DNA of 64,000 nucleotides from Deferribacteres bacterium (GCA_020633655.1 JACKDF010000005.1:321424-385423), one strand, 5' to 3'. Shown: positions 5,352-47,945, counted from the first letter of the stretch. Translations and numbers: made by a program. Notes: generated by a model from the letters alone, not told the origin.

Positions 5352-5367
5352 AGGAAAAGTCCTTTAC

Positions 5368-5988: not shown

Positions 5989-6010
5989 TGTTTCTCAAGC
6001 TCTTGTAAAG

Positions 6011-6034
6011 AAATGAATGATTGTTCATTCATTT
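6011..6034. promoter_or_regulatory. candidate TetR operator (perfect 10-bp inverted repeat with a 4-bp spacer)
   Basis: AAATGAATGA ttgt TCATTCATTT, 22 nt upstream of the TetR start codon, in the divergent tetR / fadL-like intergenic region. Confidence 0.5.
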
Positions 6035-6452
6035 AATATAGGATAGAAATTGTAAAGATCAAGAGGGGAATATTTAAAAGTTTTTAATGTAAGTTGCGGG
6101 TTCTGTTGGTTTATGATAATTTTTAATGTTTTTTATTAGAAAGTGTTTTTATCTGAGCTTTTCTCTAATGAATATGTCGACGAAAACATTTCATGACTAT
6201 TTTTATTTGTTGACAATTAACAGTTTTTACAGTACGTTAAAGGTCGCGAATTTAAACGAATTTTTTTGCTGTTGCTGCGTGTTTCATGACAACAAAAAAT
6301 GTAGTTATTTTTATCTTTCCATTTCATTAAAAACAAAACCAAAATATTAAATAAAAATGTGAAATTGGTGGTTTGCACAATTTATGAATATGATCCCACC
6401 ATTGGCAAACTGCCCGTAGTTTATTCATCACTCACTAAAATCGGAGGGTTTT

Positions 6453-7751: not shown

Positions 7752-7783
7752 TTCAATTGAATTCAAGAGAAACGGAGATAAAT

Positions 7784-9235: not shown

Positions 9236-9253
9236 TTTTAATTAGAAATTTTT

Positions 9254-9291
9254 AAAAAAAGGTTGGTTTCGCCTGGCGAGCCAACCTTTTT
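9254..9291. terminator. bidirectional terminator hairpin between convergent genes
   Basis: A-run, then AGGTTGG...CCAACCT stem with an inner TCGCC/GGCGA stem, then a T-run. It sits between the SGNH gene (+) and the TraB/GumN gene (-). Confidence 0.7.
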
Positions 9292-32350: not shown

Positions 32351-33298
32351 ATGAAAATGTCGCAACGACAAGATTTCCTGTCTGAACTCATCGATGAGTT
32401 TTTAGCTTTCCTTGCTGCTGAAAAAAATCTGGCGCAAAATACAATTGAAGCCTACGGCCTCGATCTTGCCCACTACCACACCTGGCTCAGCGAAAAAAAA
32501 GTTCCTTCCCTCAACGCAATCGAAACGAAAGACATACGCGAATTTTTATCTGCCCTCGACGAATTAGAGCTTGCTGAAGCAACGGTTGCGCGCAAATGCG
32601 CAGCGATTCGCATGTTCCATCGCTACGTACACGCTGAAAACTATTGTGCCTCTGATCCCGCTCAATTAATTTCCTATAAACGCCGCAAAAGTTATTTGCC
32701 GGATGTACTGGAAATACACGAAATTGAAGCTGTTTTTGATTGTGTCGTCCCGGATACTGCTTTGGGATTACGCGACATGGCCCTTCTGGAATTTTTATAT
32801 GGAACCGGATGCAGAATATCCGAGGCACTGAATTTTGAACGCAGTGATTACTTTGCTGAAGAGAGTTTTGTGCAATTGACTGGCAAAGGCCGCAAAACAC
32901 GGCTTGTGCCGATAGGGGAGGTGGCTGTTCAGGCTATGCAGGATTATCTGCGCTACGGCCGTCCCGAATTGGCAAATCCTTTTATTTCACAGGATGTCGT
33001 TTTCCTCAATAATCGCGGACGAAAACTTTCCCGCATGGGGGCATGGAAAATTATACGAAAATATCTGGAAGCCGCCAAAATTGAAAAACATGCGTCCCCG
33101 CATACTTTCCGCCACAGCTTCGCAACCCATTTGCTCGAAGGAGGCGCTGATTTACGCGCTGTCCAGGAGATGCTTGGGCACGCCAGTATTTCCACGACTC
33201 AGATTTACACCCATATAGATCGCAGTTTTTTGCACACAGTCATACGTGATTTCCATCCGTTGGAGCAGCGCGGCAGGATGAAATCCAAATCGAAATAA
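32351..33298 (+). CDS. xerD: tyrosine site-specific recombinase XerD/XerC
   Basis: 315 aa. N-terminal SAM-like domain (FLAFLAAEKNLAQNTIEAYGLDL). Catalytic region ...GCRISEAL...HTFRHSFATHLLEGGADLRAVQEMLGHASISTTQIYTHI. Confidence 0.88.
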   Translation: MKMSQRQDFLSELIDEFLAFLAAEKNLAQNTIEAYGLDLAHYHTWLSEKKVPSLNAIETKDIREFLSALDELELAEATVARKCAAIRMFHRYVHAENYCASDPAQLISYKRRKSYLPDVLEIHEIEAVFDCVVPDTALGLRDMALLEFLYGTGCRISEALNFERSDYFAEESFVQLTGKGRKTRLVPIGEVAVQAMQDYLRYGRPELANPFISQDVVFLNNRGRKLSRMGAWKIIRKYLEAAKIEKHASPHTFRHSFATHLLEGGADLRAVQEMLGHASISTTQIYTHIDRSFLHTVIRDFHPLEQRGRMKSKSK

Positions 33299-34118: not shown

Positions 34119-34772
34119 TTAAACCGTATTATTTACATTAGTAATAAACTCGTGCAACTTGTTTTTGTCCAGTTCATTATTCGATCGCACACCCGAGCAG
34201 ACATCGACGCCAAAAGGTTTTACAGCATTAATCGCCATAGCAACATTGTCCGGTTTTAAACCTCCAGCGAGGAACACAGGAATATCAACGAGGGTAACTA
34301 TTTCTCTACTCAGATTCCAGTCATGTGTTCTTCCCGTGCCACCAAGCTCCTTGATTTCAAGCGCCTGGTTGCCAGAATCTAGAAGTAGTGCATCGACGTA
34401 ATTTGCACTTTCTTTCGCTTCCTTTATGGATTCTTCCCCCACCACATGAATGACTTGTATAAGTGATACTCCCGGCAGGTTTTTTCTTAGAATGCGATAG
34501 TGATCCGTGCTAATACGGTCACATATTTGAATTGTGTTGACACCGCATTTTCTCTGTTGTGCTATTATGCCCTGCACATCTGTCCGTGAAGTGAGAAGAA
34601 ATGTTCCTATGGGTGGTGGTACCCTTGATACGATTTGGGCTATTAAGGATTCAGATATGACGCCCGGGCCGCTTGGCATACTCGAAACGAAACCCAAAGC
34701 GGAAGCACCATACTTTATGGCCGTCGATGCTTCTTCATGGGAACTTATACAGCATATTTTTACTCGTAGCAT
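34119..34772 (-). CDS. trpF: phosphoribosylanthranilate isomerase (orphan trpF, no other trp genes nearby)
   Basis: 217 aa. MLRVKICCISSHEEA..., IQICD/VIHV blocks, LLDSG...GGTGRTHDW, FLAGGLKPDNV, GVDVCSGV. Confidence 0.85.
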   Translation of the reverse strand: MLRVKICCISSHEEASTAIKYGASALGFVSSMPSGPGVISESLIAQIVSRVPPPIGTFLLTSRTDVQGIIAQQRKCGVNTIQICDRISTDHYRILRKNLPGVSLIQVIHVVGEESIKEAKESANYVDALLLDSGNQALEIKELGGTGRTHDWNLSREIVTLVDIPVFLAGGLKPDNVAMAINAVKPFGVDVCSGVRSNNELDKNKLHEFITNVNNTV

Positions 34773-34807
34773 ATTTTTATTGCCTGACGTATCCTTGACT
34801 GGCGCCT

Positions 34808-35050
34808 TTAAGCGTCCGGTACAAGAGGCTTTTTATGTTTGTTCTTTTCGATTATTGTGTCATATGCATTTTTCAGGTCTCGATAGTGCCACTGATCAAA
34901 AATATGGGCTCGCTGGAGTAAAATAGGTGCAAATAATATTGAAGTTAATCCAATAAAAAGCCAATTAAACTTGTGGTCATTTTTTATATACAGAGCATTT
35001 GTAATAAATGAAGTGCCGACTATTAGGCATGATAATGCAAGATTAGCCAC
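34808..35050 (-). CDS. hypothetical small membrane protein (80 aa, two predicted TM helices)
   Basis: GTG start; hydrophobic segments LALSCLIVGTSFI and WLFIGLTSILFAPILL. No family recognised. Confidence 0.4.
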   Translation of the reverse strand: MANLALSCLIVGTSFITNALYIKNDHKFNWLFIGLTSILFAPILLQRAHIFDQWHYRDLKNAYDTIIEKNKHKKPLVPDA

Positions 35051-35076
35051 TGCCTTTCCCTGATTTATTGCCTATT

Positions 35077-35137
35077 AACATTAATCTGCCCATAGTTTTT
35101 TCTTTCCGGTGATGTGTAATATGGGCCAATTAATGTT
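35077..35137 (-). repeat. attC-like imperfect palindrome S1
   Basis: AACATTAATCTGCCCATA (35077-35094) pairs with TATGGGCCAATTAATGTT (35120-35137), with a 25-nt loop. On the minus strand it ends GTTAATA. Confidence 0.45.
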
Positions 35138-35268
35138 TTATCATTTTCATTAAAAGTCAAACGTGTTGTACAGCGATGAATGGTTAAATTCGGGTCTGCT
35201 ACTTTCCGATGATCATTTATAAATTCTAAAATCAATAAAGGGCTATCTGGTTCATTTACAATTATTTT

Positions 35269-36288
35269 TTATTGTCCTTTGCCCTTGTCTTTCTTTTTTA
35301 ATTTCTTCACTTCTTTATCAAAATCAGAAATGAATTTTTCATCCTGAATAATGCGGAATTTTTCATATTCCTTTTCAGCGGTTTCTTTGGCAACGGCGGC
35401 AGAAACTTGGCCGGGGTTGTTCAACACATCGTATTGATTAAACTGCAGAAAGGCATCCAAACGTTCTGCCCATTCCTGCATTTTTATTGGGATTTGCCGT
35501 TCTGCCTGTAATTCTGCAAAATCCAAATACATGGTAACAATACGGTTAAGATTGCGGATTTCTTTTTCATTAAGATAATTCTTGGCAACGGTAACATCAG
35601 ATTTTAAGACTTTACCTTTAGGTGCGTTTTTCCAGGTTGTCAATCCCATGTGGTCCTTAGCGGAATCTGCTCGCTGGGCAATTATTTCAGCTGCTGTGTT
35701 TCCGGTGATGGCCCAGTGCAATTTATTCTGGACTGTTTTGTAGAAAAGTTCGGTTACTGTAGACTGCGGATCGTAATCAATGCTACATTGGGCATAAATA
35801 TCCGTAATCTTCTGGTAGAAGCGGCGTTCACTGGCACGAATTTCCCGGATGCGTTCCAGCAATTCATCAAAGTAATCTTTGCCAAACAATGTGCCGCCCT
35901 GTTTTAGGCGCTCATCATCCAAAGCAAAACCTTTGGTGATAAATTCCCGCAATACGCGGGTTGCCCAGATACGGAACTGCGTTGCCCGGGAAGTATTTAC
36001 CCGATAGCCGACTGAAATAATAGCGTCCAGATTATAATATTCGAGATTGCGGGAGACCTGGCGCTCACCTTCGGTTTGAACTGTCAAGATTTCTTTGACA
36101 GTTGCTTTTTTGCCTAACTCATTTTCTTTGAAGATATTTTGCAGGTGGTAACTGATATTTTGTTTGGTTGCCCCGAACAGTTCAGCCATTTTATTGATTG
36201 TTAACCAAACTGTCTCTTCCCGTACAAGGACTTCTACCTTAACATTACCCTGCGGTGTTGTATATAAAATGATCTCAGAATTTTTCAT
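35269..36288 (-). CDS. rhuM: RhuM family (virulence-associated, Fic/DOC-neighbourhood) protein
   Basis: 339 aa. Characteristic N-terminus ...VKVEVLVREETVWLTINKMAELFGATKQNISYHLQNIFKENEL...YNLDAIISVGYRVNTSRATQFRIWATRVLREF. Confidence 0.88.
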   Translation of the reverse strand: MKNSEIILYTTPQGNVKVEVLVREETVWLTINKMAELFGATKQNISYHLQNIFKENELGKKATVKEILTVQTEGERQVSRNLEYYNLDAIISVGYRVNTSRATQFRIWATRVLREFITKGFALDDERLKQGGTLFGKDYFDELLERIREIRASERRFYQKITDIYAQCSIDYDPQSTVTELFYKTVQNKLHWAITGNTAAEIIAQRADSAKDHMGLTTWKNAPKGKVLKSDVTVAKNYLNEKEIRNLNRIVTMYLDFAELQAERQIPIKMQEWAERLDAFLQFNQYDVLNNPGQVSAAVAKETAEKEYEKFRIIQDEKFISDFDKEVKKLKKKDKGKGQ

Positions 36289-36545
36289 GTTTCACTTTCA
36301 ATTTCATAATTCTCATACGCTTCTTTTGACAACGGAAAAGCCGGATCAATCACCAGAACTTCGTCGTAGTTGAGTTGGTAGAGTTTGTAAACCAGAAAAT
36401 CAATTTTAGATTTTAGTTTTTTAAATTCTTTCTCACTGATTTCTGGTTGAAGTAGTTGATTTACAATTTTAGTAAACACATTTTGTTTGTCACTGGATGC
36501 TGTTTTAATTGGGATTTTTTTCCAATCATCAGGATAAAAATCCAA
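36285..36545 (-). pseudogene. 3'-terminal fragment of a restriction-modification (type IIG/TaqI-like or BREX-type) methyltransferase gene
   Basis: The C-terminal ~85 aa of ORF 36285..36761 (DFYPDDWKKIPIKTASSDKQNVFTKIVNQLL...KSKIDFLVYKLYQLNYDEVLVID) match the conserved tail of such enzymes. The upstream half of that ORF is just the antisense of the intron 5' end. Its stop overlaps the rhuM start (ATGA). Confidence 0.5.
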
Positions 36546-36743
36546 GTGTGTGCCCGGCATGGCACGTGTGTATTTTGAATATCGAAATATACGCAGATTA
36601 TCCAGAGGGTGCAAGTCCCTTATGGGCAAGTTGGCGAAGCCCATTAGCAAGCCGCAAGGGTGTTCCGGGTGACCGGAAATCTGAAGGAAGCGATACTGCA
36701 AGAATCTGTGCGGAGGAATACAAACTGCATATGAGGCATAGCA

Positions 36744-38018
36744 TTGTGGGTAAGTAACCACTTCTTTACAAAGCCCGTAGCCAACAAACTTTGCTATGTA
36801 GATGCAGCAGGAGTCGACGGCAGATCAGTTAACAATCTGTCTTCCTATTTGAAAACGCACTGGAGTTCGATCAAAGAAAGGGTGGAGTCTGGCCGCTATG
36901 AACCTGATGCGATATTGGGTGTGGAAATTCCCAAGAGCAATGGGAAAACCCGGCTTTTGGGTGTTCCAACAGTTGTTGACCGCTTGCTGCAGCAGGCATT
37001 ACATCAACAACTGAGCCCGATATTCGAAAAGGATTTTCAGGAACATAGCTATGGTTTTCGTCCGAACCGCAATGCACATCAGGCGATTAAACAGGCGCAC
37101 AAGAACATCAATGACGGCTATCAGGATATCGTCGATATCGATTTGAAGAGCTTCTTTGATGAAGTGAGCCATGAATTGCTGATGACATTGATATACCGAA
37201 GAGTGAAGTGCCCACTGACCTTGAAACTGATTCGGAAATTTCTTCGAGCACCTATTCAAAAGAATGGGAAACTGGAGAAACGACGCAAAGGCGTGCCACA
37301 GGGTAGCCCACTGAGTCCTTTACTGTCCAATATCATTCTGAATGAATTGGATAAGGAATTGACGAAGCGTGGCCACCGGTATGTGAGATACGCCGACGAT
37401 TTCAGTGTGTACCTCAAGAGCAAGACGGCAGCGAGACGTGTTGGAAATAGTATTTACTTGTTCCTACGCGATGAACTCCGTTTGCCGATTAATCGCGAGA
37501 AAAGTGGAATCCGTCGTCCGAGTAAGTTTTACATGCTTGGTTATGGTTTTGTGCCGGTATTTTGCAAAGGCTCAAAGGGACAGTACCAACTGGTTGCGGA
37601 CATCTTTGCCTTGAAAAGGTTAAAAGAGAAGATCAAATGGATCACCCGCAAGACGACCCCGATGACCTTTGATGAACGGATAGCAAAACTGAACCAGGTA
37701 ATGAAAGGTTGGATGCACTATTTCAAGTACGCAAATATGCATGCAAAACTGCGAGTCATTGATGTCTGGATACGCCGTCGTTTGCGTGGTTGTATCTGGC
37801 ATGATTGGAAGAAACCGAACCGCAAGATGAAGAATCTGATGCGTTTGGGAATTCCGAAAGGGATGGCTTATGCATGGAGCAGAACGCGTATGGGAAGATG
37901 GGCTGTGGCTTGTAGTCCGATATTGAGTACAACGATCACGATTGGTCGTTTGGAAAGTCGTGGCTATGTGTCGCTGGAATCATACTATCTGAAAGTTCGG
38001 AAGACTGTAGGTTCGTGA
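36744..38018 (+). CDS. group II intron reverse transcriptase/maturase (no endonuclease domain)
   Basis: 424 aa. AAGVDG, RLLGVPTVVDRLLQQA, YGFRPNRNAHQA, the YADD box (VRYADDFSVY), and maturase domain X (MKGWMHYFKYANM...RRRLRGCIW). The N-terminal ~20 aa are atypical and the start is a TTG. Confidence 0.9.
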   Translation: MWVSNHFFTKPVANKLCYVDAAGVDGRSVNNLSSYLKTHWSSIKERVESGRYEPDAILGVEIPKSNGKTRLLGVPTVVDRLLQQALHQQLSPIFEKDFQEHSYGFRPNRNAHQAIKQAHKNINDGYQDIVDIDLKSFFDEVSHELLMTLIYRRVKCPLTLKLIRKFLRAPIQKNGKLEKRRKGVPQGSPLSPLLSNIILNELDKELTKRGHRYVRYADDFSVYLKSKTAARRVGNSIYLFLRDELRLPINREKSGIRRPSKFYMLGYGFVPVFCKGSKGQYQLVADIFALKRLKEKIKWITRKTTPMTFDERIAKLNQVMKGWMHYFKYANMHAKLRVIDVWIRRRLRGCIWHDWKKPNRKMKNLMRLGIPKGMAYAWSRTRMGRWAVACSPILSTTITIGRLESRGYVSLESYYLKVRKTVGS

Positions 38019-38051
38019 ACCGCCGTGTACGTGATCCGTACGCACGGTGGT
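38018..38051 (+). ncRNA. group II intron domain V
   Basis: AACCGCCGUGUACG-UGAUC-CGUAC-GC-ACGGUGGU: 34 nt, two helices with a 2-nt bulge on the 3' strand. It starts at the RT stop codon. Confidence 0.75.
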
Positions 38052-38238
38052 GTGAGAGGCGCACTCCGGTCTAACGGGGCCGGAGCCGCCTACTCGATTA
38101 GCATGTATTTCGTTTCTTTTTATTTATTCTTTAAAAATATTTATAAATCTCCAATTTGCTTCCGCATGAATGCGTAACAAGTCTATTACCTTGAAATACA
38201 GCGATTTTTCTCGTTTTTGATGCCGCTGTTTACCAAAC

Positions 38239-40845
38239 TTAACTTTTGTAAACCATTGCATGTTCATCGGGATTGAACCCTTTTGGGAATTTGGTATCAC
38301 CATCAAAATAAGCACCCTTAAGCTTAGTTCTGTTTAAATTCGTTCTACTGAGGTTTGTTGCTCTGAGATCAGCTCCGCTGAGGTTTGCGTTTTTAAGCCT
38401 GACCCTATCAAGTTTTGCATTTCGAAGATTTGTGTTAGTAAGAAAGGCTCCACTGAGATTAGCTTCACTTAAGTTTATTCCACTGAGGTCCATCCCGCTG
38501 AGATTCACTCCGTTGAGTTTACTTTTGCTAAGATTTACTCTATTAAGGTTTGCTCCCCTAAACTTGGCCATATAAAAATCACTACCGCTGAGATTTGCTC
38601 CACTAAAGTCAATCTCACTCAAATCAGCTCCTTTAAGGATAACTCCACTCAGATTGGCTCCTTGATAATCAACTCCACTGAGATTAATTTTCATTAAGTC
38701 AGTTCGCTTTAGATTTGATTTTTTATTATTTATTCCATTAAATTTCATTCCCTTGAGATTAGCTTGCTTTAGATTTGATGCTTTATTATTTATTCCATCA
38801 GGTATAATTTTTCTTATATCAGTTTGTTTTTTTTTATCTTTTATTATACTATTATCGGTAAAAATAATTTCATTTAAATTGACTCCATTATGATCGATCT
38901 CTTTAATGTCTATTCCGTGAAAATTAGTTTGAAAAAGAATGCTGCCTTTCAGGTTGATTCCTTGGATATTAGCATCCTGTAAATCAGCATTACTGAGATT
39001 AGCCATACTGAAATTTGCTCCATTGAGGATAGCTTTACAAAGTTTAGCTCCTTTGAGATTTGAATAACTGAGTTCAGCATTTGTTAAAATAGAACTAGTA
39101 AGATTTGCCCCAGCAAGACTGGTATTATTGAGATTAGCACTTTTGAGATCAGCATTGCTAAGATTAGTTCCTTCCAGATTTGCTCCTTTAAGATCAGCAT
39201 TACTTAAGCAGATACCTTCAAGATCAGCACCACTGAGATAAGCTTCATTAAGTATACTATCGCTTAGGTTGGCATTACAAAGAATTACTTCACTAAGAGT
39301 TGCATTATTTAATTTGGCTCTACGAAGATCTGCTTTTCCTAGGTTAGCTTCACTGATGACAGCACCTTTTAGATCTGCATCCCTAAGATTTGCTTCAGTG
39401 AGTACAGCTTCCATGAGATTAACATTATTTAAATTAGCACCCATCAGGTTTGCTCTAACTAGTTTAAGTCCACTTAGATTGCAATCACTGAAATTCAATC
39501 CAGTAAGGTCTGCTTCGCTGAGATCTATTTCTTGACTATAATGTAACTTAACTAATTCAGCGACAAATTTTTTTATTTGATCTGTCCAATCAAGAAAAAC
39601 GCGATCTTTTACTGGTAATTTAACAAAGTAATTTATGAAAAGGAATTCAAGGATTGATCTATGGGAAAACTTGTAATTCCCATAACCATCTCTATTTAAG
39701 AGGGATCGAGAACTGAGTTCAAGTTCATTTAGATCAATTTTATGAGTTAAAGCGAAAGGTACTAGCTCATGTCGTGGAATTTGACCATTATTTTCCTTTT
39801 GATAGCGATATAGGTGATTTGCAAGTGCTTCAGAAAATCGTCGGAGTGCGACTTTATCACTTATGCGTTCACGGTTGATCCAATGTATAATAATTTCTTC
39901 ATAGATATCATAACTATTTTTATATTCTTTATTAGGATCCATAAAACTCGACATATATTTTAACAACATTGGACGCAAAGCAAGGCTTGGTGCAGCTGAA
40001 ATGATTTGCCAAGCTTTTCTTCGCAGTTTATAATTTAAAATAGAGTATTTTTTCTTGATAAATTTTTGTACCTGCTCATCATTAAATGGAAGCAAGTATT
40101 GAATTGTAAACATTCTGTATCCATCACTTTGATCGGCATTGATGTTTGGTATTGAAGTTTTTCGTTTTATTGCTGCTGAATTAGGAAAAAATTGTGTACG
40201 GCTACTGATTAAAACTCTATTGAAACCTTCTGTTATATCTACCAACTGATTATAACGTGTATTAATACTCTCTATTGCAAATGGGTCTTCATCAAAAGCA
40301 TCGAGAAAAAGAATTGTATTTTTTTTATTCTCTATGTTTTTGATACATTGATCTACATTTTTTGCGTTAAGTCTGAGTACAATAATTTGTTTTTTGCTAA
40401 ATTTCTTATGTCGATAATTACGCATAAGTATATTAATCAAGGCAGCCGTTTTCCCGGTACCAGAATCTCCTAGTAAATACATATGTCGATTCTTTGCCCC
40501 TTCAGACAGAAATTCATCTATTTTTGTAAATAGTTTTTCATGTTTTTTCTCTCCATAGATTTTCTTAAGGTCCTCAGTATAAGATGGGTCACTCGGTGAA
40601 CAATACGGTTCAATATAAATATCAGTATAGCTTTTAATAGTTTCTTCATCAAAAAACTCAAACGTTATTTCATTGTTAATAATTTTTAACGCTTTATTGT
40701 CTTTCCATTTAGTTTTTAACTCTAAAATAGTTTTTATAATTATCAGTATAGTACTGATTCCCCCTATTATTTTTAAAATGGTAAATTGTTTTATATCGAA
40801 TATGTTTGTTAGAAGACTAATTATATCCTGGTTGTGAAAAAACAT
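38239..40845 (-). CDS. STAND NTPase: N-terminal TM helix, NACHT-type P-loop module, long C-terminal pentapeptide-repeat array
   Basis: 868 aa. TM helix at ~aa 22-42. Walker A LLGDSGTGKTAAL, Walker B ILFLDAFDE, then VLISSRTQFF and LLPFNDEQVQKFI (NACHT order). From ~aa 445 there are about 80 A(D/N)LxG-type pentapeptide units, interrupted once by a Lys-rich linker. Confidence 0.85.
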   Translation of the reverse strand: MFFHNQDIISLLTNIFDIKQFTILKIIGGISTILIIIKTILELKTKWKDNKALKIINNEITFEFFDEETIKSYTDIYIEPYCSPSDPSYTEDLKKIYGEKKHEKLFTKIDEFLSEGAKNRHMYLLGDSGTGKTAALINILMRNYRHKKFSKKQIIVLRLNAKNVDQCIKNIENKKNTILFLDAFDEDPFAIESINTRYNQLVDITEGFNRVLISSRTQFFPNSAAIKRKTSIPNINADQSDGYRMFTIQYLLPFNDEQVQKFIKKKYSILNYKLRRKAWQIISAAPSLALRPMLLKYMSSFMDPNKEYKNSYDIYEEIIIHWINRERISDKVALRRFSEALANHLYRYQKENNGQIPRHELVPFALTHKIDLNELELSSRSLLNRDGYGNYKFSHRSILEFLFINYFVKLPVKDRVFLDWTDQIKKFVAELVKLHYSQEIDLSEADLTGLNFSDCNLSGLKLVRANLMGANLNNVNLMEAVLTEANLRDADLKGAVISEANLGKADLRRAKLNNATLSEVILCNANLSDSILNEAYLSGADLEGICLSNADLKGANLEGTNLSNADLKSANLNNTSLAGANLTSSILTNAELSYSNLKGAKLCKAILNGANFSMANLSNADLQDANIQGINLKGSILFQTNFHGIDIKEIDHNGVNLNEIIFTDNSIIKDKKKQTDIRKIIPDGINNKASNLKQANLKGMKFNGINNKKSNLKRTDLMKINLSGVDYQGANLSGVILKGADLSEIDFSGANLSGSDFYMAKFRGANLNRVNLSKSKLNGVNLSGMDLSGINLSEANLSGAFLTNTNLRNAKLDRVRLKNANLSGADLRATNLSRTNLNRTKLKGAYFDGDTKFPKGFNPDEHAMVYKS

Positions 40846-40920
40846 TTTACTATTTTGATCCTATTTTTAGTAATTCTCATTTTGATCAAATTACCTACCA
40901 CCCCACCTGAGACTGATGCT

Positions 40921-40983
40921 AACGTTGAAGTCAGCGGCATGTGGAGCTTGCGGAAGCCCCACATGCCTCTGGACTGACAGGTT
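40921..40983 (-). repeat. attC-like imperfect palindrome S2
   Basis: AAC-GTTGAAGTCAGCGGCATGTGG (40921-40944) pairs with CCACATGCCTCTGGACTGACAG-GTT (40959-40983), with an inner GCTT-gcgg-AAGC hairpin. It starts 5 nt after the stop of the 93-aa ORF. On the minus strand it opens ATATAAC and closes GTTAGCA. Confidence 0.5.
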
Positions 40984-40987
40984 ATAT

Positions 40988-41269
40988 TTATTGCCATTCG
41001 GTGAAATTCAAATAACCTAGATACATAAAAAATAATGTACAAGCAGGGTATGCCAACATTTTTATCTTGTTATTTATCTTACCTAATTCAGGATGAGGTC
41101 TCATACCCAGCCAACATGATACAAAACACAGCACTAAGCCAAACAACAAACAGACACTATCAATGACCATGTTGCTTGAGTAGTAAACTGGAACTAGCAG
41201 CAAGAATCCTGCGTAAATAACAAAATCCGCTGGCTTTATACCCAACCATTCTTTAGTCGATTCTTTCAT
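40988..41269 (-). CDS. hypothetical small membrane protein (~93 aa, three hydrophobic segments)
   Basis: The ORF track gives 40988..41308 from a GTG. The ATG at 41269 (MKESTKEWLGIKPADFVIYAGFLLLVPV...) is more plausible. No family recognised. Confidence 0.45.
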   Translation of the reverse strand: MKESTKEWLGIKPADFVIYAGFLLLVPVYYSSNMVIDSVCLLFGLVLCFVSCWLGMRPHPELGKINNKIKMLAYPACTLFFMYLGYLNFTEWQ

Positions 41270-41284
41270 GTTATTCCCATAAAA

Positions 41285-41423
41285 ATATAACGTTAACGTG
41301 ATGCTCACCTGCTGGCGGGCTTAACAGCACAAAACATAAATAAATTATCAAAACTTCAAATACTGCACTGATCGTGCTGAAATTGCCGCCCTGCCCGCCA
41401 GTCAGGTGCAGCAATAGTTAGGT
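41285..41423 (-). repeat. attC-like imperfect palindrome S3
   Basis: CTCACCTGCTGGCGGGC (41304-41320) pairs with GCCCGCCAGTCAGGTG (41393-41408), with a 72-nt AT-rich loop. On the minus strand it opens ACCTAAC (41423-41417) and closes GTTAACGTTATAT (41297-41285). Confidence 0.5.
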
Positions 41424-41450
41424 GAAGTCAGTAGTACTTTTTAAAAAAAT

Positions 41451-44024
41451 TTAAAGAAATATAATTTCCTTGGGTACCCCATTTTCAAATTCTATCATCA
41501 ACCTCTTATCAAAATGATTATTAGTAAAAGTTACATGAAAATCTATATACTTTTTCAGTCCATCGCCAAATGCAACATTTCCAGTTTGTTGAAAGATATG
41601 ATCCATTTTAGAACTAATGTCCTGTATACTATCTAACTTTGCTTGCGTTTTATTTTGCTCAGCAATCATAATTGACTGAACTGATATTTCACATATTTTA
41701 CAAACTTGATCAGGTTGAATATCTGTATTCTCAATAGAAGTGAATCCCAGCATTTCATTTTTATTTAATAATTTCAAATTAGTTAAGACTGAGCCTGATG
41801 TATTCTTAATACTAATTATAAATTTTCCTGCTAAAACATCAAAATTTCCAATTTTTTCGATAACACATTTTAATTGATTAACTTTATTAATTTCAGGAAT
41901 ACTCTTAGTTTTAATAAAATTATTTTTTATTTCGTAACTATTGGTATTGAGCGACAATACCAAATCGTCATATTTTGAATAAAATTCATTTACTATTTCT
42001 TGTTTTGAGAGTTTGTTTTTACGTTCTTTTACAAAGCTCGATAACAAGCTTTCTTCTTTAGTAAATGTTGAATCAGATAACTTCTCAAATGAATCTAGAA
42101 TTTCAGGTGCTAATTTTTCTACAAGGATAATAGTTTCAGTCGTATCTTGTAGATAATCTGGCATATTCGCAGTAAGACAAAATAGTAAAATATTTGTCCA
42201 TGCCAATTCGGTGTCATTAGTCATTAAGTAGTTAAGACATAGTGTCCTATAGACTGATGCGAAAAGAGGTTTAAGACCAATAGCCTTTTTAGCAAATTCT
42301 ATAGATTTGTTATGTATTGATTTAATATAATAAAGCTGTGAGAGTTTAATATAGGGATACGGATTATTTGGAGCAAGTTCTAATGCCGCATTATAATAAT
42401 TAAGAGCCTGTTCGATATTATCTTTACGTTCATAAACTCTCCCAAGTTGAAAAAAAATCACAGGATCTGAAGGAGCTATTTCTTTCGCTTCCATAAGGAT
42501 TTCTATACAATTATCAAAATTTGCACTAAAAAGATATGCATCTGATAATCGATAGTAACCTAACATTTCTTCAGGTTCTTTTCGTATATACTGACGAAAA
42601 TAGTGTATTGCTCCCTCATAGTCACCTTCTTTCATATAACTTGTACCTAAAAACAAAGATACTCCAGCATTTGTAGATTTTATTATATCTTCATTTTTTT
42701 TTATTATTTGCAGAATTTCATCTGGTGTAATATTTTTATTTTCAAGGAATTGATCCCATGCGCTTGAAGGAGCTCTTAATATTTGTTCAGCCAGACTATC
42801 ATTAAAAGAGTTTATATAAACAACATTATCTCTATGATCTTGAGATATATAAAAAAGCTCAAAATTATTTGTTTCGCTGATTCTCTCAACTTCATCTTCA
42901 AAAAATCCTATTGTAAATTTAAAATTGAAGTATCCAGAATATTTTGAGTTGAAATCAACTAGTATATTTTGACCATCTTTAGATTCTATTACTATATATT
43001 TATTTCCTAAAACAGAACTTATTTTCTTTTTTGGATCAAGATTAACATGAAAAATTTCCCTATCAAACACACCTTTGGCTAATGATCCTACTACAATTCT
43101 TCTTGGAAGCTTTTCATAATTATTTAAAATTAACTCAATTTTGTCAATAGAAATCTGTTTTTCACTTTTATTAAAGAAAAAGAATTTTATTGGATCTCTG
43201 AATCTATCCTCTGAATAACCTTCTAAAGGAAGTAACCGAACTTTCTTTAATATTCCTTTTTCGATACAGTATGCATATTTATATGGGGGAGTAAAATGAT
43301 AAGCCGTTTTAATTGAAAGAGATTTGGATATAAGGGGTTGTTCAAAGACATTTATTATAATATCTTTACTTGAAAATATTTTTGATGATTTGTCAGTGAA
43401 ATGAAGAGAAATATTGCTAGCTCCAACATTTTTCCCCTTAATAATCATACTAATTTTATGCGTGCTATTTTTGTTTAGTTTTACTAGCTGTTCTAAATTT
43501 AATAATTCTATTGATACTATTTGATGATTCATTGTTATAGAATGTAGTTTTATATTTTCAATATCGCGCGTTCCTGTATTTCTCAACATTATATCCAAAT
43601 TTAATTCTTCATGAACTTGAATCTTATATTGGGATTTGTTTTCAATATGAAAAACATCTAATTTTGAATCACTACTAGTAGTGCTGTTGTTTGTCATTCT
43701 ATCAATATTTAAACTATCTAATTGAATTTCGTCTCTATCCTGAATTTTGCTCTCAGAGTTACTATTTACATTGACTATCTCCAGTTCTTTTTCTCCAAAA
43801 TATTGATAGTATATTTCTGTTGCCTTATCAATATTTGTAAGAAGTCCTATTATAGTGGTAAAAAAAGCAATGATCACACTTAATTTTGCTATTAACCATT
43901 TTCTTGGATTTCTGTGTTGCCAACATTTTGAATATGAACTAGTTGATTTAAGTTTTCTATTACATTTCTTTCCTGATTTAAGTATATGTTCACATTGCTT
44001 GTAAGATAATATAGTTTTTTCCAT
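41451..44024 (-). CDS. hypothetical 857-aa protein: Cys/His-rich N-terminus, one TM helix, beta-rich region, TPR repeats, unknown C-terminal domain
   Basis: The N-terminus reads CEHILKSGKKCNRKLKSTSSYSKCWQH, and the TM helix is WLIAKLSVIIAFFTTIIGLL. TPR-like repeats span ~aa 465-610 (GDYEGAIHYFRQYI..., ALNYYNAALELAPNNPYPY...). The gene is very AT-rich. Confidence 0.7.
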   Translation of the reverse strand: MEKTILSYKQCEHILKSGKKCNRKLKSTSSYSKCWQHRNPRKWLIAKLSVIIAFFTTIIGLLTNIDKATEIYYQYFGEKELEIVNVNSNSESKIQDRDEIQLDSLNIDRMTNNSTTSSDSKLDVFHIENKSQYKIQVHEELNLDIMLRNTGTRDIENIKLHSITMNHQIVSIELLNLEQLVKLNKNSTHKISMIIKGKNVGASNISLHFTDKSSKIFSSKDIIINVFEQPLISKSLSIKTAYHFTPPYKYAYCIEKGILKKVRLLPLEGYSEDRFRDPIKFFFFNKSEKQISIDKIELILNNYEKLPRRIVVGSLAKGVFDREIFHVNLDPKKKISSVLGNKYIVIESKDGQNILVDFNSKYSGYFNFKFTIGFFEDEVERISETNNFELFYISQDHRDNVVYINSFNDSLAEQILRAPSSAWDQFLENKNITPDEILQIIKKNEDIIKSTNAGVSLFLGTSYMKEGDYEGAIHYFRQYIRKEPEEMLGYYRLSDAYLFSANFDNCIEILMEAKEIAPSDPVIFFQLGRVYERKDNIEQALNYYNAALELAPNNPYPYIKLSQLYYIKSIHNKSIEFAKKAIGLKPLFASVYRTLCLNYLMTNDTELAWTNILLFCLTANMPDYLQDTTETIILVEKLAPEILDSFEKLSDSTFTKEESLLSSFVKERKNKLSKQEIVNEFYSKYDDLVLSLNTNSYEIKNNFIKTKSIPEINKVNQLKCVIEKIGNFDVLAGKFIISIKNTSGSVLTNLKLLNKNEMLGFTSIENTDIQPDQVCKICEISVQSIMIAEQNKTQAKLDSIQDISSKMDHIFQQTGNVAFGDGLKKYIDFHVTFTNNHFDKRLMIEFENGVPKEIIFL

Positions 44025-44086
44025 TTTTATCCTCTTATGATATTGTTAATTCATAAAATCTAAAAATGTAATATTCATAATCAAAC

Positions 44087-44167
44087 ACCTAACTTGTTTC
44101 TCACCGACTGGGAGAGGAAAGTTATAGCTTGTAAAAACTTGTCGGTGAGGAAAATGACTTGTTTTTT
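44087..44167 (-). repeat. attC-like imperfect palindrome S4
   Basis: TTTCTCACCGAC (44097-44108) pairs with GTCGGTGAGGAA (44141-44152), with a 32-nt loop. On the minus strand it opens AAAAAAC (44167-44161) and closes GTTAGGT (44093-44087). Confidence 0.5.
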
Positions 44168-44264
44168 AGATTATTACCATAAAAATAGAAATTTACATCC
44201 AATTGTTCAACAAAATATATGTTCATCTCCATGCAGGATATCAAAGGCAAAATTTCCATACTTT

Positions 44265-46052
44265 TTATTTTCCCCGCCGGAACGCTAACCATGCCAGGAC
44301 CAGAAAACCACTGGTTGACAAACCGATGGCAAGGATTGTAAGGAAACTGATTTCCCGGGAAATTATGAGCTTGTAGGGATCATCCCGGTCATACCAACAC
44401 GGTACAATAGCTCCCAGTTTGTTTTCTCTAAAGAATTGAAAGGATGCTGCTGCACTCGATATAACGTCGCCCTCTGGTGTTGCGTACCGTGCGGCTATTA
44501 TCGGCATTTGGTGGATCGTGGTTGTGGAACGACTTGTACGGCTTCCGCTCGTCGTTACGGATTTTAAGTAAAAACGACGGTCGAGAATCACTGCTTCCGA
44601 CTTGTCATAATTGGTATAAAGATGCACAGTTTCCATTATCAGTGTGTATGTTATAAGGGCGAAAAGCAACGAGAAAATACCCGCATTCAATCGACCGGCA
44701 ACCCTGGTGAAAGGATGTTTTCTACCCAGAAAATGCCAGGAACCGGCCCAAATCATAATTAGTAAGGGGAAGCTGAAAATCAAAAACAAACTAGCGACGG
44801 TTCCATCGACATATTCTGATTCCGATAATGGCTGACTCAGGTTTAAAAACAGGTCTTCTTCCTCGGAATAGGTTAACACGTTCCGAGCCCGCACATCAAC
44901 AGATAAATCGCCGGTGTCCCAGGCATCCCGAACAAAGATTCGCATGGTGAGAAAACCACTACTGCGTGCAGGCAGTGCTAACAACGGCCAATCAATTTTT
45001 TGGTCCAGTTGTGCCTGATAGGGATTAATAATTTTGCCATTATGCGATGTGCCAACAAACAAAGCTTCCGAATTCAAGGTGGCTTCAACTCTTACAACCC
45101 GTTTTGTGTCTGTATCGTTGGTTAAGCGGATTTTAAGTTCAGCCAGGTCACCGTGCTTCAACGGATCCGGATTTACACTAATTTTTGCAGGCGTTAATGA
45201 ACTTGTACTGTCCAGCTCTATCTGGTCTAACCAGTCCTGTCGCGCATGGCTCAGAAAATTCAGATTCTCGTTGCGATGAATGCTGCCATGGGCATAGTTA
45301 ACAAGCAGCTTGTCGACTTCCGAACTGTTACCCAGCCAATCCGCGACCGTTCGGCCGAAATCATCGACCGCGTTCACCTCGGCGCCATTTTCTGCTAATA
45401 TTTTTACCAGCTTTGGATTTGCTTCATAAACGTACATAAGCGGCGTTCTGCCGTTGTCATCCCGGGCATTTGGATCAGCACCATTGGAGAGCAGGACACT
45501 GGCTATCTCCTCGTTGTGCGTTCGCATCAATAATGTGGTTCCACCTTCCCCACGGGTATCCGGATTCAGCCCCGATTCAAGCAAAGGCTGCAGCATTTCC
45601 GGGGTTTTGGCATCATCAATTAGAGGGCGTCCAAAAGAATCCCGCGGTTCCGGATCACCTAAACCGACCCAGGCCAATTTGCGCACCAATGGCAGGTTGT
45701 CATTGTACATGGCCCGGTCAAGAAGCCGGGCCCGTTCTTCAAGAATTGGCCAGCCAAGGGGTGTTTTTAAAAGCAGGCTATCCGGCCATGCGGGAACGAG
45801 AGTTAATGCGCCTAAAATCAGGAGAGCTAAACTTCCAAGAATTGATACCGCATTTATTGGATGCGTCAGAAATGATTTTAATAACTTTTTCAGACCGAAA
45901 TAAATCAGGATTCCACCTATAAAACTCAGGAAAATAACACCCGCCAGGGGGACCAATCCGTAGAGAAGCCAGACATGCCCTACGGTTATTATCAGATAGA
46001 AAACCGTACCTGTCCAGCCTGGTTTGTCACGTTGCGCCTTGTTCTTTTTCAT
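44265..46052 (-). CDS. polytopic membrane protein with ankyrin repeats and a C-terminal DUF3592-like module
   Basis: The ORF track starts at a TTG at 46121. The ATG at 46052, preceded by AAAGGAGA, gives MKKNKAQRDKPGW... There are N-terminal TM helices and ANK repeats (GGTTLLMRTHNEEIASVLLSNGADPNARDDNGRTPLMY...LAENGAEVNAVDDFGRT). The C-terminal region is a beta-rich segment bracketed by TM helices. The DUF3592 assignment is tentative. Confidence 0.75.
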   Translation of the reverse strand: MKKNKAQRDKPGWTGTVFYLIITVGHVWLLYGLVPLAGVIFLSFIGGILIYFGLKKLLKSFLTHPINAVSILGSLALLILGALTLVPAWPDSLLLKTPLGWPILEERARLLDRAMYNDNLPLVRKLAWVGLGDPEPRDSFGRPLIDDAKTPEMLQPLLESGLNPDTRGEGGTTLLMRTHNEEIASVLLSNGADPNARDDNGRTPLMYVYEANPKLVKILAENGAEVNAVDDFGRTVADWLGNSSEVDKLLVNYAHGSIHRNENLNFLSHARQDWLDQIELDSTSSLTPAKISVNPDPLKHGDLAELKIRLTNDTDTKRVVRVEATLNSEALFVGTSHNGKIINPYQAQLDQKIDWPLLALPARSSGFLTMRIFVRDAWDTGDLSVDVRARNVLTYSEEEDLFLNLSQPLSESEYVDGTVASLFLIFSFPLLIMIWAGSWHFLGRKHPFTRVAGRLNAGIFSLLFALITYTLIMETVHLYTNYDKSEAVILDRRFYLKSVTTSGSRTSRSTTTIHQMPIIAARYATPEGDVISSAAASFQFFRENKLGAIVPCWYDRDDPYKLIISREISFLTILAIGLSTSGFLVLAWLAFRRGK

Positions 46053-46418
46053 TTTAATTATTTCGTCTCCTTTTAAGTGCTCTAAAAATCTGATATGCGG
46101 ACATACGGAAGTAACAGCCAATAGAAGTCATCCCATGATTCGATAAAAACCATCACACCGAGTTGAATGCGGTCAAAACAAAATGACTACAGGCTAGTAA
46201 TCACAGGACAAAACATTGCTATATGACCTTCTTTACCAGGTTCACTTCAGGACTGTGTACTTAATAAACCGGTTGTAGAAGTTATCTCATCCTGTCTAGG
46301 AATGCAAGGATCATTTGGGGCTTTGCCGGAAATAAGACAATATGAATACGCAAGTTACTACTACTTCTTTGGCAAATTCGAGTTTTGCCTAAAAAATAGG
46401 TAAGAGGAAAACAACCCT

Positions 46419-46660
46419 TGACGAGGCCGTCGAAAAACATGCAAATTCGGACCCTGAGCTTGTCGAAGGGCCCGAATTCGAGCGTGGAACCGGGTATTTT
46501 GACACGTCGACTTTACTCAGTGCAGGCAGGCTCAATGTCCGGTTTGTCCCTTTTTCAACAGTTTCGAAAGGATTGCGATTTTACAGAAACTCTTTTACTC
46601 TGGACTCACCAAACCTGAATTATTCTCACGCGCAGAGTCGCGGAGCCCGCTGAGAAAAGC
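46419..46660. repeat. cluster of GC-rich hairpin repeat sequences inside a 0.8-kb noncoding spacer
   Basis: Hairpin AATTCGGACCC...GGGCCCGAATT (46444-46478) containing CCCTGAGCTTGTCGAAGGG; then CTCAGTGCAGGCAGGCTC (46517-46534); then TCTCACGCGCAGAGTCGCGGAGCCCGCTGAGA (46624-46655). Confidence 0.5.
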
Positions 46661-46893
46661 TTTGATGAATTACAAAATATGGCTCTGTATCCTTTTCGAT
46701 TCGACGTTTATCTTTTCGAACTTATTCTTATTCTTGCATGAATAACAGCGGAAAAATCAGTGGTCAGTTTGTGGAAGATGGCAGACAATCTTGAAGGATT
46801 TATCCGTTGAATTAATCGAGAGAATATCCTATCATAAGCAGTCTTTTTCACAGTTCTACAATAAAAAATTTTCCTTCGGCTGGGAGAGTCTGA

Positions 46894-47829
46894 ATGGCGG
46901 TTTCAAAACAACGGCGACTTTTTACGATTTATGCACAAGGTGATCTGGCAGCAGCACAGAAATTGAAACAGCAATTCGCCGAAGTGCAGATCAAGTTGGG
47001 AATCGATCTCGACCGGCGGGTGGACAGCCACGCGTTTTCAGCAGACAAATGTACGGCCTTGCGAAACAGCGATGCGGCCCTTGTTCTCTGGTCGCAATAT
47101 GCAGCCGAGTCGCTTTGGGTGGAAGTTGAAATCCGTGGTGCAGAGGATTTGCACAAACCAGTGATATTGCTGCACCTCGAAGATTTTCCCCTGAATGTGA
47201 ATATGCATCCTGATCTCATCGTAAGTCCTGAGCCTGTTGAAAAGGTGCGAAAACGCATCGTTCACTTTTTAAACCGGCAAAAGGCACGACATCAAACACA
47301 TTCGTTAACACATGACCAATCGAATAATCCTTTCGCCTTGCGGAGTTCCGCTGTAAAACGGTTTAATCCGCTTTCTTTGGAGCATATGGCCCAGAAGCTT
47401 GGTTTCTTTGAAAAAACATTGAATCCCGATGGTTACGGAGTGCGGCATCAGTACGAAAGCGTGGAAGACGGGCGTCTTCTACACGACTATGCAACCGGAT
47501 TGATGTGGCAGGTTGCGGGCTCCGCCCATGAGATAAATTACGAAGTGGCCGCGGGCTATGTGGACGATTTGAACCGCGAGCGCTACAGTGGCTTTCGCGA
47601 GTGGCGCCTGCCTACGGTGGAGGAAGCCCTGTCTTTGCTCGAACCAACGCACTATGAACATGGTCTCTACCTCGATCCACTTTTTGGTGCGTTGCAAAAA
47701 TCCATCTGGACATGCGATGCATTCTCCGGGGAACATTGGACATTGAATTTCAGTGTCGCGCAATGCTTTTTACAGGGCTCTGGCACTGAGCACTTTGTAC
47801 GCGCGGTGCGAACACTCGAAACGCTTTAG
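46894..47829 (+). CDS. TIR-like domain fused to an Lcl_C/DUF1566 (lectin-like) domain
   Basis: 311 aa. The N-terminal ~105 aa fit the TIR_2 pattern (LFTIYAQGD...AAQKLKQQF...SDAALVLWSQYAAESLWVEVEI...KPVILLHLE). The C-terminal part has the DUF1566 hallmarks TGLMWQ ... FREWRLPTVEEALSLL. Confidence 0.65.
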   Translation: MAVSKQRRLFTIYAQGDLAAAQKLKQQFAEVQIKLGIDLDRRVDSHAFSADKCTALRNSDAALVLWSQYAAESLWVEVEIRGAEDLHKPVILLHLEDFPLNVNMHPDLIVSPEPVEKVRKRIVHFLNRQKARHQTHSLTHDQSNNPFALRSSAVKRFNPLSLEHMAQKLGFFEKTLNPDGYGVRHQYESVEDGRLLHDYATGLMWQVAGSAHEINYEVAAGYVDDLNRERYSGFREWRLPTVEEALSLLEPTHYEHGLYLDPLFGALQKSIWTCDAFSGEHWTLNFSVAQCFLQGSGTEHFVRAVRTLETL

Positions 47830-47945
47830 TTGCAAAACAAAACTCCTTGTTTAATCCATGAAATACACGCTCAATGCGATAAAATCAAAGCGCATTGAAC
47901 GTATTTCATTGTTCGAAAAAATAATAACCTGGCAAAATAATTTCT

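Follow-up and report, generated by a model that had tools for sequence, protein, structure and literature searches.

What is the stretch of about 13 kb that separates trpF from a ydiJ-like gene in an uncultured KSB1/Calditrichota-like bacterium: one inserted defense island, one new multi-gene system, part of the ancestral core, or a patchwork of different ages? The stretch occupies positions 34773-47945 of a 64,000-nt genome segment (GCA_020633655.1, JACKDF010000005.1:321424-385423, deposited as Deferribacteres bacterium), which is called the window throughout this work. The initial annotation regarded it as a mosaic accessory island enriched in defense-type domains, and named eight genes: rhuM, a remnant of a restriction-modification (RM) gene, a group II intron, a STAND NTPase of the NACHT type with pentapeptide repeats, a small membrane protein, a giant protein with a transmembrane (TM) helix and tetratricopeptide repeats (TPR), an ankyrin membrane protein, and a fusion of a TIR domain with the Lcl_C domain (TIR-Lcl_C). 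All eight are confirmed at their positions by Pfam, PADLOC, NCBIfam and Rfam, and the list omitted a fragment of Cap15 (35065-35235) and a possible open reading frame (ORF) with two TM helices (34808-35050). We consider it probable that the region is a slowly built, flexible genome stretch of multiple origins at a synteny breakpoint, rather than a single mobile element or a single multi-gene system.

According to this reading, four layers would be superimposed. The first would be a decaying defense patch beside trpF, in which an intact RhuM is flanked by a Cap15 stub, a type IIG stub and a disabled intron. The second would consist of two recent low-GC imports, the NACHT-like NTPase and the orphan TM-TPR protein, on either side of a small membrane gene of host-like composition. 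The third would be the ankyrin membrane protein, likewise host-like. The fourth would be the older TIR-DUF1566 (TIR-Lcl_C) gene, which may have accompanied ydiJ-thiI-trmI since before the split from a relative whose YdiJ is 63% identical. The features of the region and its core flanks are as follows.

34119-34772, minus strand: trpF, phosphoribosylanthranilate (PRA) isomerase, left core flank (PF00697, 82.9 bits; the same protein on a contig of a metagenome-assembled genome (MAG) and on a 932-bp ENA contig)
34808-35050, minus strand: putative 80-aa ORF with two hydrophobic helices, judged from its hydrophobic segments; gene status uncertain
35065-35235, minus strand: 56-aa ORF, remnant of a CBASS Cap15-type effector (PF18153 Cap15_CD_rec, 36.6 bits with a cut-off of 31.2, profile positions 70-122 of 122)
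35269-36288, minus strand: RhuM-family protein, PDC-S05 of PADLOC (Virulence_RhuM PF13310, 391 bits; PDC-S05, about 516 bits over the full length)
36285-36546, minus strand: remnant of a type IIG RM enzyme, its C-terminal 87 aa (PADLOC REase_MTase_IIG, profile positions 1165-1244 of 1247)
36546-38098, plus strand: group II intron with intact ends and an internal deletion of about 300 nt (Rfam, TIGR04416, comparison with plasmid introns)
38239-40845, minus strand: NACHT-like STAND NTPase, anchored in the membrane and ending in about 430 aa of pentapeptide repeats, low GC (Pentapeptide, 284 bits)
40988-41308, minus strand: small membrane protein of host-like composition (93 aa from the ATG at 41269, 106 aa from the GTG at 41308)
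41451-44024, minus strand: 857-aa near-orphan TM/TPR protein, lowest GC in the window (Pfam, TPR families only)
44265-46121, minus strand: polytopic membrane protein with ankyrin repeats at residues 173-261 (Ank_2/Ank_4, weak DUF3592; start at 46052 in the MAG annotation, giving 595 aa)
46894-47829, plus strand: cytoplasmic protein of TIR and Lcl_C/DUF1566, the latter of C-type-lectin fold (Lcl_C, 58.4 bits)
47946-50861, plus strand: ydiJ-like FAD/Fe-S oxidoreductase, right core flank (Pfam, NCBIfam; order ydiJ-thiI-trmI kept in relatives)

Base composition

The GC content of about 30% that had been reported for 38.1-44.2 kb is borne out by sliding windows: the segment 38099-44264 has a GC content of 0.310, compared to a mean of 0.435 (sd 0.016, minimum 0.395) in 155 windows of equal length outside the region, an enrichment of low GC in 38.1-44.3 kb that is far beyond chance. 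At the third codon position (GC3), the STAND gene (0.236) and the TPR gene (0.184) lie 4-5 sd under the genome (0.431 +/- 0.050 in 36 outside genes), and foreign GC3 is confined to these two. RhuM (0.426), the ankyrin gene (0.468) and TIR-Lcl_C (0.519) have host-like GC3; the ankyrin and TIR genes are indeed richer in GC, as had been noticed by eye, with overall values (0.469 and 0.502, respectively) close to that of the ydiJ-like gene (0.482).

The low-GC stretch is itself non-uniform. Over the roughly 600 bp at 40846-41450, which comprise the small membrane gene and a spacer on either side, the GC content is 0.36-0.43, with 0.40-0.43 in the spacers alone, and the GC3 of the gene is 0.38; thus, a single low-GC cassette is not supported, because the small gene between the two foreign genes is host-like. 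The region contains at least three composition classes, but only the STAND and TPR genes are compositionally foreign, and about 5.5 kb is demonstrably so. The earlier proposal of several independent acquisitions therefore holds in the sense of a compositional and functional mosaic of several origins, and has to be narrowed in that no more than two genes are foreign by composition and the TIR-Lcl_C gene is old.

Gene order in relatives

Scans of genomes and metagenomes with YdiJ yielded one close relative, on a 3.4-kb contig, and other hits at no more than 54% identity, and a protein search added two relatives at 63-65%. In the latter, GCA_008501765.1 (YdiJ 65% identical) and GCA_024275575.1 (63%), the order ydiJ-thiI-trmI is conserved. 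The idea that 13 kb interrupts an otherwise continuous housekeeping synteny is not borne out by this comparison: the genes found upstream of ydiJ in the relatives are those for OmpA and DNA_alkylation, joined in one genome by an RND efflux operon, and neither trpF nor coaX nor xerD is found within 10 kb of the ydiJ locus in either genome. A simple 13-kb insertion is not shown, since the relatives do not have trpF next to ydiJ, and judged from their gene order the region lies at a synteny breakpoint. The genes to the left of TIR-Lcl_C, the ankyrin gene included, are absent from the ydiJ locus of both relatives, as expected for accessory genes.

The TIR-Lcl_C gene behaves differently. In GCA_024275575.1, a TIR-Lcl_C gene of host-like GC lies in the same orientation and ends 23 nt before ydiJ; its 312-aa product is 45% identical along the full length. 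Hence, as far as gene order can tell, TIR-Lcl_C is not a recent insert but a long-standing neighbor of ydiJ, and the right border of any insertion must lie to the left of 46.9 kb. The closest other genome, the "Calditrichaeota" MAG CLD5, has a YdiJ 88% identical to that of the window, on the contig of only 3.4 kb mentioned above (QQUM01000744.1), which begins, at positions 1-14, with GAAACGCTGTAG, while the TIR gene of the window ends with GAAACGCTTTAG (ETL-stop). By our estimate, chance would produce a match of 11/12 nt in a span of about 250 positions roughly 1e-3 times, and a TIR-Lcl_C ortholog probably lies just off the end of this contig. In GCA_008501765.1, OmpA is upstream of ydiJ and TIR-Lcl_C is absent. 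As a side observation, the OmpA-ydiJ spacer of this genome (9506-10000) is filled with two or three copies of a unit of about 110 nt with the palindrome CCTGACAGGATTTYGAATCCTGTCAGG, and it corresponds to the position of TIR-Lcl_C in GCA_024275575.1.

These data bear on two explanations that treat the region as a unit. One is that it belongs to the ancestral core of the lineage and is not accessory at all, which would agree with TIR-Lcl_C being in place in GCA_024275575.1, and probably in CLD5, and with the host-like GC3 of RhuM, the ankyrin gene and TIR. We regard it as very unlikely, given the two genes with GC3 4-5 sd below the genome, the three pseudogene remnants, the lack of TIR-Lcl_C in GCA_008501765.1 and the lack of every other gene of the region at the locus in both long-contig relatives. 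In other words, the pattern that the initial annotation would have taken as evidence of an ancestral core, i.e. the same genes in the same place with host-like composition, is seen for TIR-Lcl_C in GCA_024275575.1 and not, in the two long-contig relatives, for the other genes.

The other is that one genomic island or integrative element entered between trpF and ydiJ in a single event. It has in its favor the core genes on both sides, a tyrosine recombinase gene two genes to the left, and a weak, T-rich direct repeat of 19 nt (16/19 matching) at the edges of the low-GC stretch (38107-38125 and 44252-44270), one copy of which lies 9 nt past the end of the intron while the other overlaps the stop codon of the ankyrin gene. 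However, the recombinase (32351-33298), the sole tyrosine recombinase nearby, is the housekeeping XerD equivalog (TIGR02225, 336 bits with a cut-off of 329.6), and no integrase dedicated to the region was found besides it. There is no tRNA, and there are no flanking repeats at the outer ends (34.8 and 47.9 kb); furthermore, at least three composition classes, TIR-Lcl_C at the same spot in a distant relative, and relatives without trpF beside ydiJ are difficult to reconcile with one insertion. As an att site, the AT-rich 16/19 repeat was rejected as too weak a match. A single insertion thus appears extremely improbable.

The TIR-Lcl_C protein

The initial annotation recognized no enzymatic effector among the large proteins. 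This has to be corrected, because the TIR domain keeps the catalytic glutamate, and we predict that TIR-Lcl_C is an effector of the NADase type. The window protein scores 27.2 with TIR_2 (cut-off 28) and 23.1 with ThsB_TIR (cut-off 21.2). A library search retrieved 5,794 relatives, mostly via the lectin domain, and among them at least nine full-length cluster representatives of about 310 aa; TIR_2 (best 1e-29) and Lcl_C were each matched by 10/10 aligned full-length members. A TIR profile built from two sequences had no match among solved structures, whereas the ten-sequence profile matched the TIR domains of AbTIR, PdTIR, Cat1, SPARTA and SARM1, with AbTIR and 7uxr at 4.5e-12. S73, V76 and E79 are invariant in all ten sequences, and E79 aligns with the glutamate of WTEYEL in 7uxr, i.e. 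with the catalytic position.

TIR-Lcl_C has in common with the bacterial TIR NADases (AbTIR, ThsB, SPARTA TIR-APAZ, Cat1) the TIR fold at the family level and the invariant glutamate, here in the motif S-x-W-V-x-x-E. Unlike in the known enzymes, its TIR domain is fused to a DUF1566 lectin fold in a stand-alone protein of about 310 aa that has been kept beside a metabolic operon. Unlike the TIR proteins of Thoeris, SPARTA and CRISPR systems, it has no ThsA, Argonaute or CRISPR partner nearby; in particular, none of the 10 proteins of the region and the 20 flanking ones gave a ThsA-like match. Binding of a ligand by the lectin-fold receptor could lead to oligomerization of TIR and this, in turn, to cleavage of NAD+. 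The last 170 aa share 33-38% identity with the sensors found in the STAND family described below, and the most variable part of the TIR-Lcl_C family falls between IWTxD and FVRAVR, as in the variable regions of retroelements.

The NACHT-like STAND NTPase and its family

The label NACHT, given to the STAND protein by eye, is upheld by motifs and by structure, although the Pfam model is not matched. The protein has one TM helix at residues 23-41 followed by a lysine-rich stretch, which suggests that the NTPase and the sensor are cytoplasmic and tethered to the membrane. Walker A (GDSGTGKT) is found at 127-134, with G129, G131 and K132 invariant in 47 family members, in which the motif has the general form GxGK[TS]; in Walker B (LDAFDED), D182, D185, E186 and D187 are invariant in the same 47 members, and the motif KFxHRSxxEYL is also conserved. 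The Walker B signature of NACHT proteins is D[GAS]hDE (10.1101/2022.07.19.500537), which DAFDE fits. The AlphaFold2 (AF2) model of residues 1-450 (pLDDT 86.9, pTM 0.82) has the arrangement of nucleotide-binding domain, helical part and winged-helix extension known from solved NACHT modules, and the top 29 Foldseek hits are NOD2, NLRP, NLRC4 and NAIP, with E-values down to 1.5e-10 and modest TM-scores of 0.33-0.45; the best folds in the PDB are NOD2, NLRP3 and NLRC4. The Pfam NACHT model (PF05729) does not match the window protein and matches 2/47 family members at E<0.01. The nSTAND3 model (PF20720) gives 25.7 bits for the full protein and 27.1 for the N-terminal module, with a cut-off of 27.2, and matches 33/47 members at E<0.01. 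Comparison of the STAND profile with the sequences of solved structures returned P-loop noise only. We therefore classify the protein as NACHT by its predicted fold and its motifs, and not by the Pfam NACHT model.

A search with residues 1-436 yields at least 1,694 homologs, most of them in MAGs of KSB1 and Calditrichia; relatives were not found in a scan of viral contigs. In the sample of 47 members, the C-terminus is Lcl_C/DUF1566 in 27, FGE-sulfatase in nine and pentapeptide repeats in eight. In the two closest homologs (63-64% identical), the shared WTDQ junction is followed by DUF1566 instead of pentapeptide repeats, and the members with pentapeptide repeats are only about 37% identical to the window protein; the sensor has therefore been exchanged repeatedly and recently. 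No partner gene is shared by the seven contexts of STAND homologs that we inspected, which show tandem paralogs, an IS21 element, a Schlafen-like gene, a neighborhood with Mrr, MmeI and an integrase, and a retroelement. Tandem STAND paralogs are frequent: a contig of a Calditrichia MAG has a pair with Lcl_C at 6118-9908, and a JGI contig has a pair with FGE-sulfatase at 4505-10019.

The closest parallels are the bNACHT proteins with "antigen-receptor-type" C-termini (Kibby et al., 10.1101/2022.07.19.500537) and the nSTAND conflict systems (Kaur et al. 2020, PMC7159879), which resemble our family in Walker B, in the fold and in the variable C-terminal sensor, the shared sensor types being FGE-type, lectin-fold and repeat solenoid. 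Unlike bNACHT, the window protein has no match to Pfam NACHT and is borderline for nSTAND3, and its N-terminus has a single TM helix and no recognizable effector domain; the family is concentrated in KSB1 and Calditrichia MAGs. In the mechanism we envisage, the protein would be tethered to the inner membrane with NTPase and sensor facing the cytoplasm, a DNA-mimicking pentapeptide solenoid would bind the trigger, the protein would then oligomerize, and the only candidate output would be the clustered N-terminal TM helices.

A link to diversity-generating retroelements

A member of the STAND family is the target of a retroelement in a KSB1 MAG (GCA_023150945.1; JAKLJX010000005.1, 2632-9818), where the order is CHAT-nSTAND1-Lcl_C, bAvd, a 106-nt repeat, a reverse transcriptase (RT) and TM-STAND-Lcl_C, the last of which is a family member with 40% identity. 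The variable repeats (5186-5291 and 9715-9820) are located at the 3' ends of both Lcl_C genes and the template (6032-6137) lies between bAvd and RT; all the mismatches among the repeats fall on adenines of the template, i.e. of the middle copy. By its sequence, this element is a complete, textbook diversity-generating retroelement (DGR). DUF1566 is a known class of DGR targets, best known in surface proteins (PMC5758913), and STAND-lectin targets of DGRs have been proposed to be antigen sensors (PMC10907252, PMC7159879). The TIR protein of the window has the same sensor domain, ending with FVRAVR, as the DGR-diversified STAND-CLec "putative antigen sensors" (Dore et al. 2024, PMC10907252), unlike which the STAND protein of the window carries pentapeptide repeats and not a lectin fold.

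We rejected the possibility that a DGR acts on the TIR gene of the window itself: there is no template repeat in the window, and six variants at 90% identity or more exhibit scattered substitutions only, without clustered variation. Specifically, no second copy of 47400-47850 is found in the 64 kb, and no RT of the DGR type, the only RT in the window being the maturase of the group II intron.

The low-GC stretch and the ankyrin gene

For the small membrane protein there is no family match in Pfam, PADLOC, NCBIfam or PHROGs, and homologs 87-88% identical occur in other ENA and JGI samples, on contigs of up to 43.7 kb. Both spacers of its gene contain GC-rich inverted repeats (41290-41420 and 40930-40970); one is the pair CACCTGCTGGCGGGC ... 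GCCCGCCAGTCAGGTG, about 75 nt apart, and the other the hairpin GGCATGTGG...CCACATGCC. The 857-aa TPR protein consists of a Cys/His-rich N-terminus, a TM helix at 44-62, a beta-rich region, a TPR block at about 455-610 and a C-terminal region. It has one true homolog, with 39% identity, on a 2.9-kb contig with a GC content of 28%, downstream of which the small membrane gene was not found; the AF2 model, calculated from a two-sequence alignment, is unusable (pLDDT 37.9), and a scan of viral contigs revealed no relatives, with matches at the level of repeats only in PHROGs.

It could be argued that the NACHT-like NTPase, the small membrane gene and the TM-TPR gene (38.2-44.0 kb) form one new membrane-associated defense system of three genes, imported as a unit. 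The three genes run in one direction, with short spacers, and each encodes a membrane-anchored protein; GC3 is similarly extreme in the two large ones, and the match between the 19-nt repeats at either edge is reached by 2/300 shuffles. Against such a system speak the seven STAND homologs, beside none of which either partner is found, the TPR homolog without a small membrane gene downstream, the host-like GC of the small gene and its spacers, and the contrast between a small protein with 87-88% identical homologs in other samples and a nearly orphan TPR protein. We consider the three-gene system unlikely. Since the small gene and its spacers are host-like with homologs elsewhere, and the TPR homolog is located on a contig with 28% GC, the data agree better with two separate imports on either side of a resident gene than with one cassette.

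The ankyrin protein has five to six hydrophobic segments, and its hits to models of Legionella effectors arise through the repeats only.

RhuM and the remnants beside trpF

The patch next to trpF contains what is, by profile comparison, the sole complete known defense gene of the region. RhuM aligns with residues 2-335 to positions 8-339 of the 342 of the PDC-S05 profile (515.7 bits). A member of PDC-S05 protected E. coli B from T7, T5 and T4, roughly 1000-fold (PMC12881386); the likeness consists in the full-length family match, and antiphage protection is known from that other member.

Around the intact RhuM there is wreckage: the Cap15 stub, the type IIG tail and the deleted group II intron. 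Of the cyclic-dinucleotide receptor domain, the Cap15 fragment retains just the final 53 positions, and it is located between RhuM and the small ORF with two TM helices; its N-terminal part is gone, as only 33 nt separate it from the stop codon of RhuM. CBASS is incomplete here, with no cyclase (CD-NTase) and no complete effector detected among the proteins of the region by PADLOC or Pfam. The 80-aa ORF has no match in searches of family profiles, including PHROGs, and its last 32 codons are also found beside trpF on an ENA contig. The type IIG RM enzyme is incomplete as well, with 87 C-terminal residues left of a polypeptide that, when complete, would comprise the nuclease, the methyltransferase and the target recognition domain (TRD). 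The possibility that the intron had inserted into an intact RM gene was ruled out, as the reading frame does not resume past the intron in any register.

The intron is recognized by Rfam through D1D4-3 (36663-36828, 94.5 bits) and D5/D6 (38018-38098, 38.9 bits with a gathering threshold of 40), and the ORF of the intron-encoded protein (IEP) spans 36744-38018 (TIGR04416, 372 bits). The closest IEPs, 61-67% identical, are located on Cytophagales plasmids, and no further copies of the IEP are on record by exact look-up. The 5' end GTGTGTGCCC (GTGTG at 36546) is bona fide, because the similarity to two Cytophagales plasmid introns, of Persicobacter and Adhaeribacter, begins there, while their own upstream flanks are unrelated. 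We have therefore withdrawn an earlier candidate explanation, a 5'-truncated intron with only about 200 nt before the ORF: the comparison with the plasmid introns shows that the 5' end is intact and the defect internal. The 88 nt at 36824-36911 stand for 388 nt (positions 1021-1408) of a relative, so that about 300 nt are lost compared to both relatives, including the D1D4-1 motif and the first ~24 codons of the IEP. The junction lies between similar strings, GCAGGAGTCGA in the ribozyme and the part of the IEP that codes for AGVDG, and joins the ribozyme sequence in frame to the IEP. Missing about 300 nt, the intron is therefore probably dead, disabled by the internal deletion.

The remainder of the window

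Immune-type domains and gene wreckage in the window are confined to 34773-47945. The remaining genes are ordinary: those of a FadB-like protein, acetyl-CoA synthetase, cbb3 oxidase, a P-type ATPase, RadA, Tgt, Def, Fmt, RsmB, XerD, CoaX, ribosomal protein S1, MalQ and Lon; all those sampled outside the region are housekeeping or metabolic, and the PADLOC matches of the 20 flanking proteins are only partial and to generic domains. The cbb3 oxidase is fused, a single 823-aa ORF (17110-19581, plus strand) containing the COX1 (CcoN), FixO (CcoO) and cbb3-type cytochrome c (CcoP-like) domains. Identical sequence is present over two contigs of the fragmented MAG GCA_020431365.1, with breaks at window positions 36627 (in the intron) and 38920 (in the pentapeptide repeats). 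A scan for promoters and terminators gave counts near the shuffled expectation and was uninformative.

Is the region immune?

The defense-type enrichment proposed initially is real in that this is the only part of the window with immune domains, but the region contains just one complete known defense gene according to PADLOC: RhuM is matched as PDC-S05 over its full length, the type IIG enzyme by its tail only, and the other large proteins without full-length coverage. It could therefore be supposed that the intact large proteins are signaling or surface-interaction proteins of a lineage rich in repeats and eukaryote-like domains (ankyrin, TPR, pentapeptide, TIR, lectin fold), and not immune. 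This would agree with the full-length defense match being limited to RhuM, with most contexts of the STAND family not being defense islands, with DUF1566 being best known in surface proteins (PMC5758913), and with the Legionella effector models being hit only through ankyrin repeats. On the other hand, a tripartite NACHT architecture with repeatedly swapped sensors is a hallmark of conflict systems, as is diversification by a retroelement, seen here in a relative (PMC7159879, PMC10907252), the TIR domain keeps its catalytic glutamate, and the genes adjoin RhuM and the wreckage of defense genes. We are inclined to doubt the non-immune explanation, while taking it seriously.

The intact immune-type genes would, in our opinion, act as independent single-gene sensor-effectors. 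The region resembles the defense islands and hotspots mapped between core genes in E. coli and Pseudomonas, with clustered immune-type genes, wreckage, a mobile intron, a mosaic composition and no single mobility module. Unlike in these hotspots, there is just one complete catalogued defense gene, TIR-DUF1566 is old and conserved in position, and turnover among strains is not demonstrable, close relatives being lacking. We see in it a variable region of the ordinary sort, carrying immune-type genes, and no new system, and neither the NACHT-like nor the TIR-lectin protein changes current concepts.

Several observations weigh against a slowly built immune-gene stretch of multiple origins. The defense roles of the STAND, TIR, ankyrin and TPR proteins are derived from domains only, none matching PADLOC or NCBIfam defense models over its full length, and the TIR domain of the window alone is just under the TIR_2 cut-off. 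The evidence for the CLD5 ortholog amounts to 12 nucleotides; YdiJ identity is 63-65% in the nearest relatives for which long contigs exist, and the relative with 88% is represented by 3.4 kb. The 16/19 repeat is reached by only 2/300 mononucleotide shuffles, which leaves room, if little, for a single insertion. Finally, half of the region is host-like in composition and could be old.

Implications

For annotation, the lesson is that a "13-kb island" read by eye can hold several layers of different age. For research on immunity, the region provides a concrete case of sensor swapping, in which 63%-identical relatives differ only by DUF1566 in place of the pentapeptide repeats. The STAND family is large, experimentally uncharacterized and concentrated in poorly studied phyla, and a compact TIR-lectin fusion uses the same sensor domain.

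It is tempting to speculate, although the odds seem to us to be against it, that the NACHT-like proteins with a TM anchor, of which at least 1,694 are detected, chiefly in KSB1 and Calditrichia, and the TIR-DUF1566 proteins of about 310 aa are two arms of one modular "antigen-receptor" repertoire. If so, one lectin-fold sensor, diversified by retroelements in some genomes, would be plugged onto either a membrane-tethered NACHT switch or a TIR NADase; the NACHT switch would produce its output through the TM helix only, and the lectin-fold sensor would be readily swapped for FGE or pentapeptide sensors. Both arms would then be seen next to each other in the window, one of them a fresh import and the other old.

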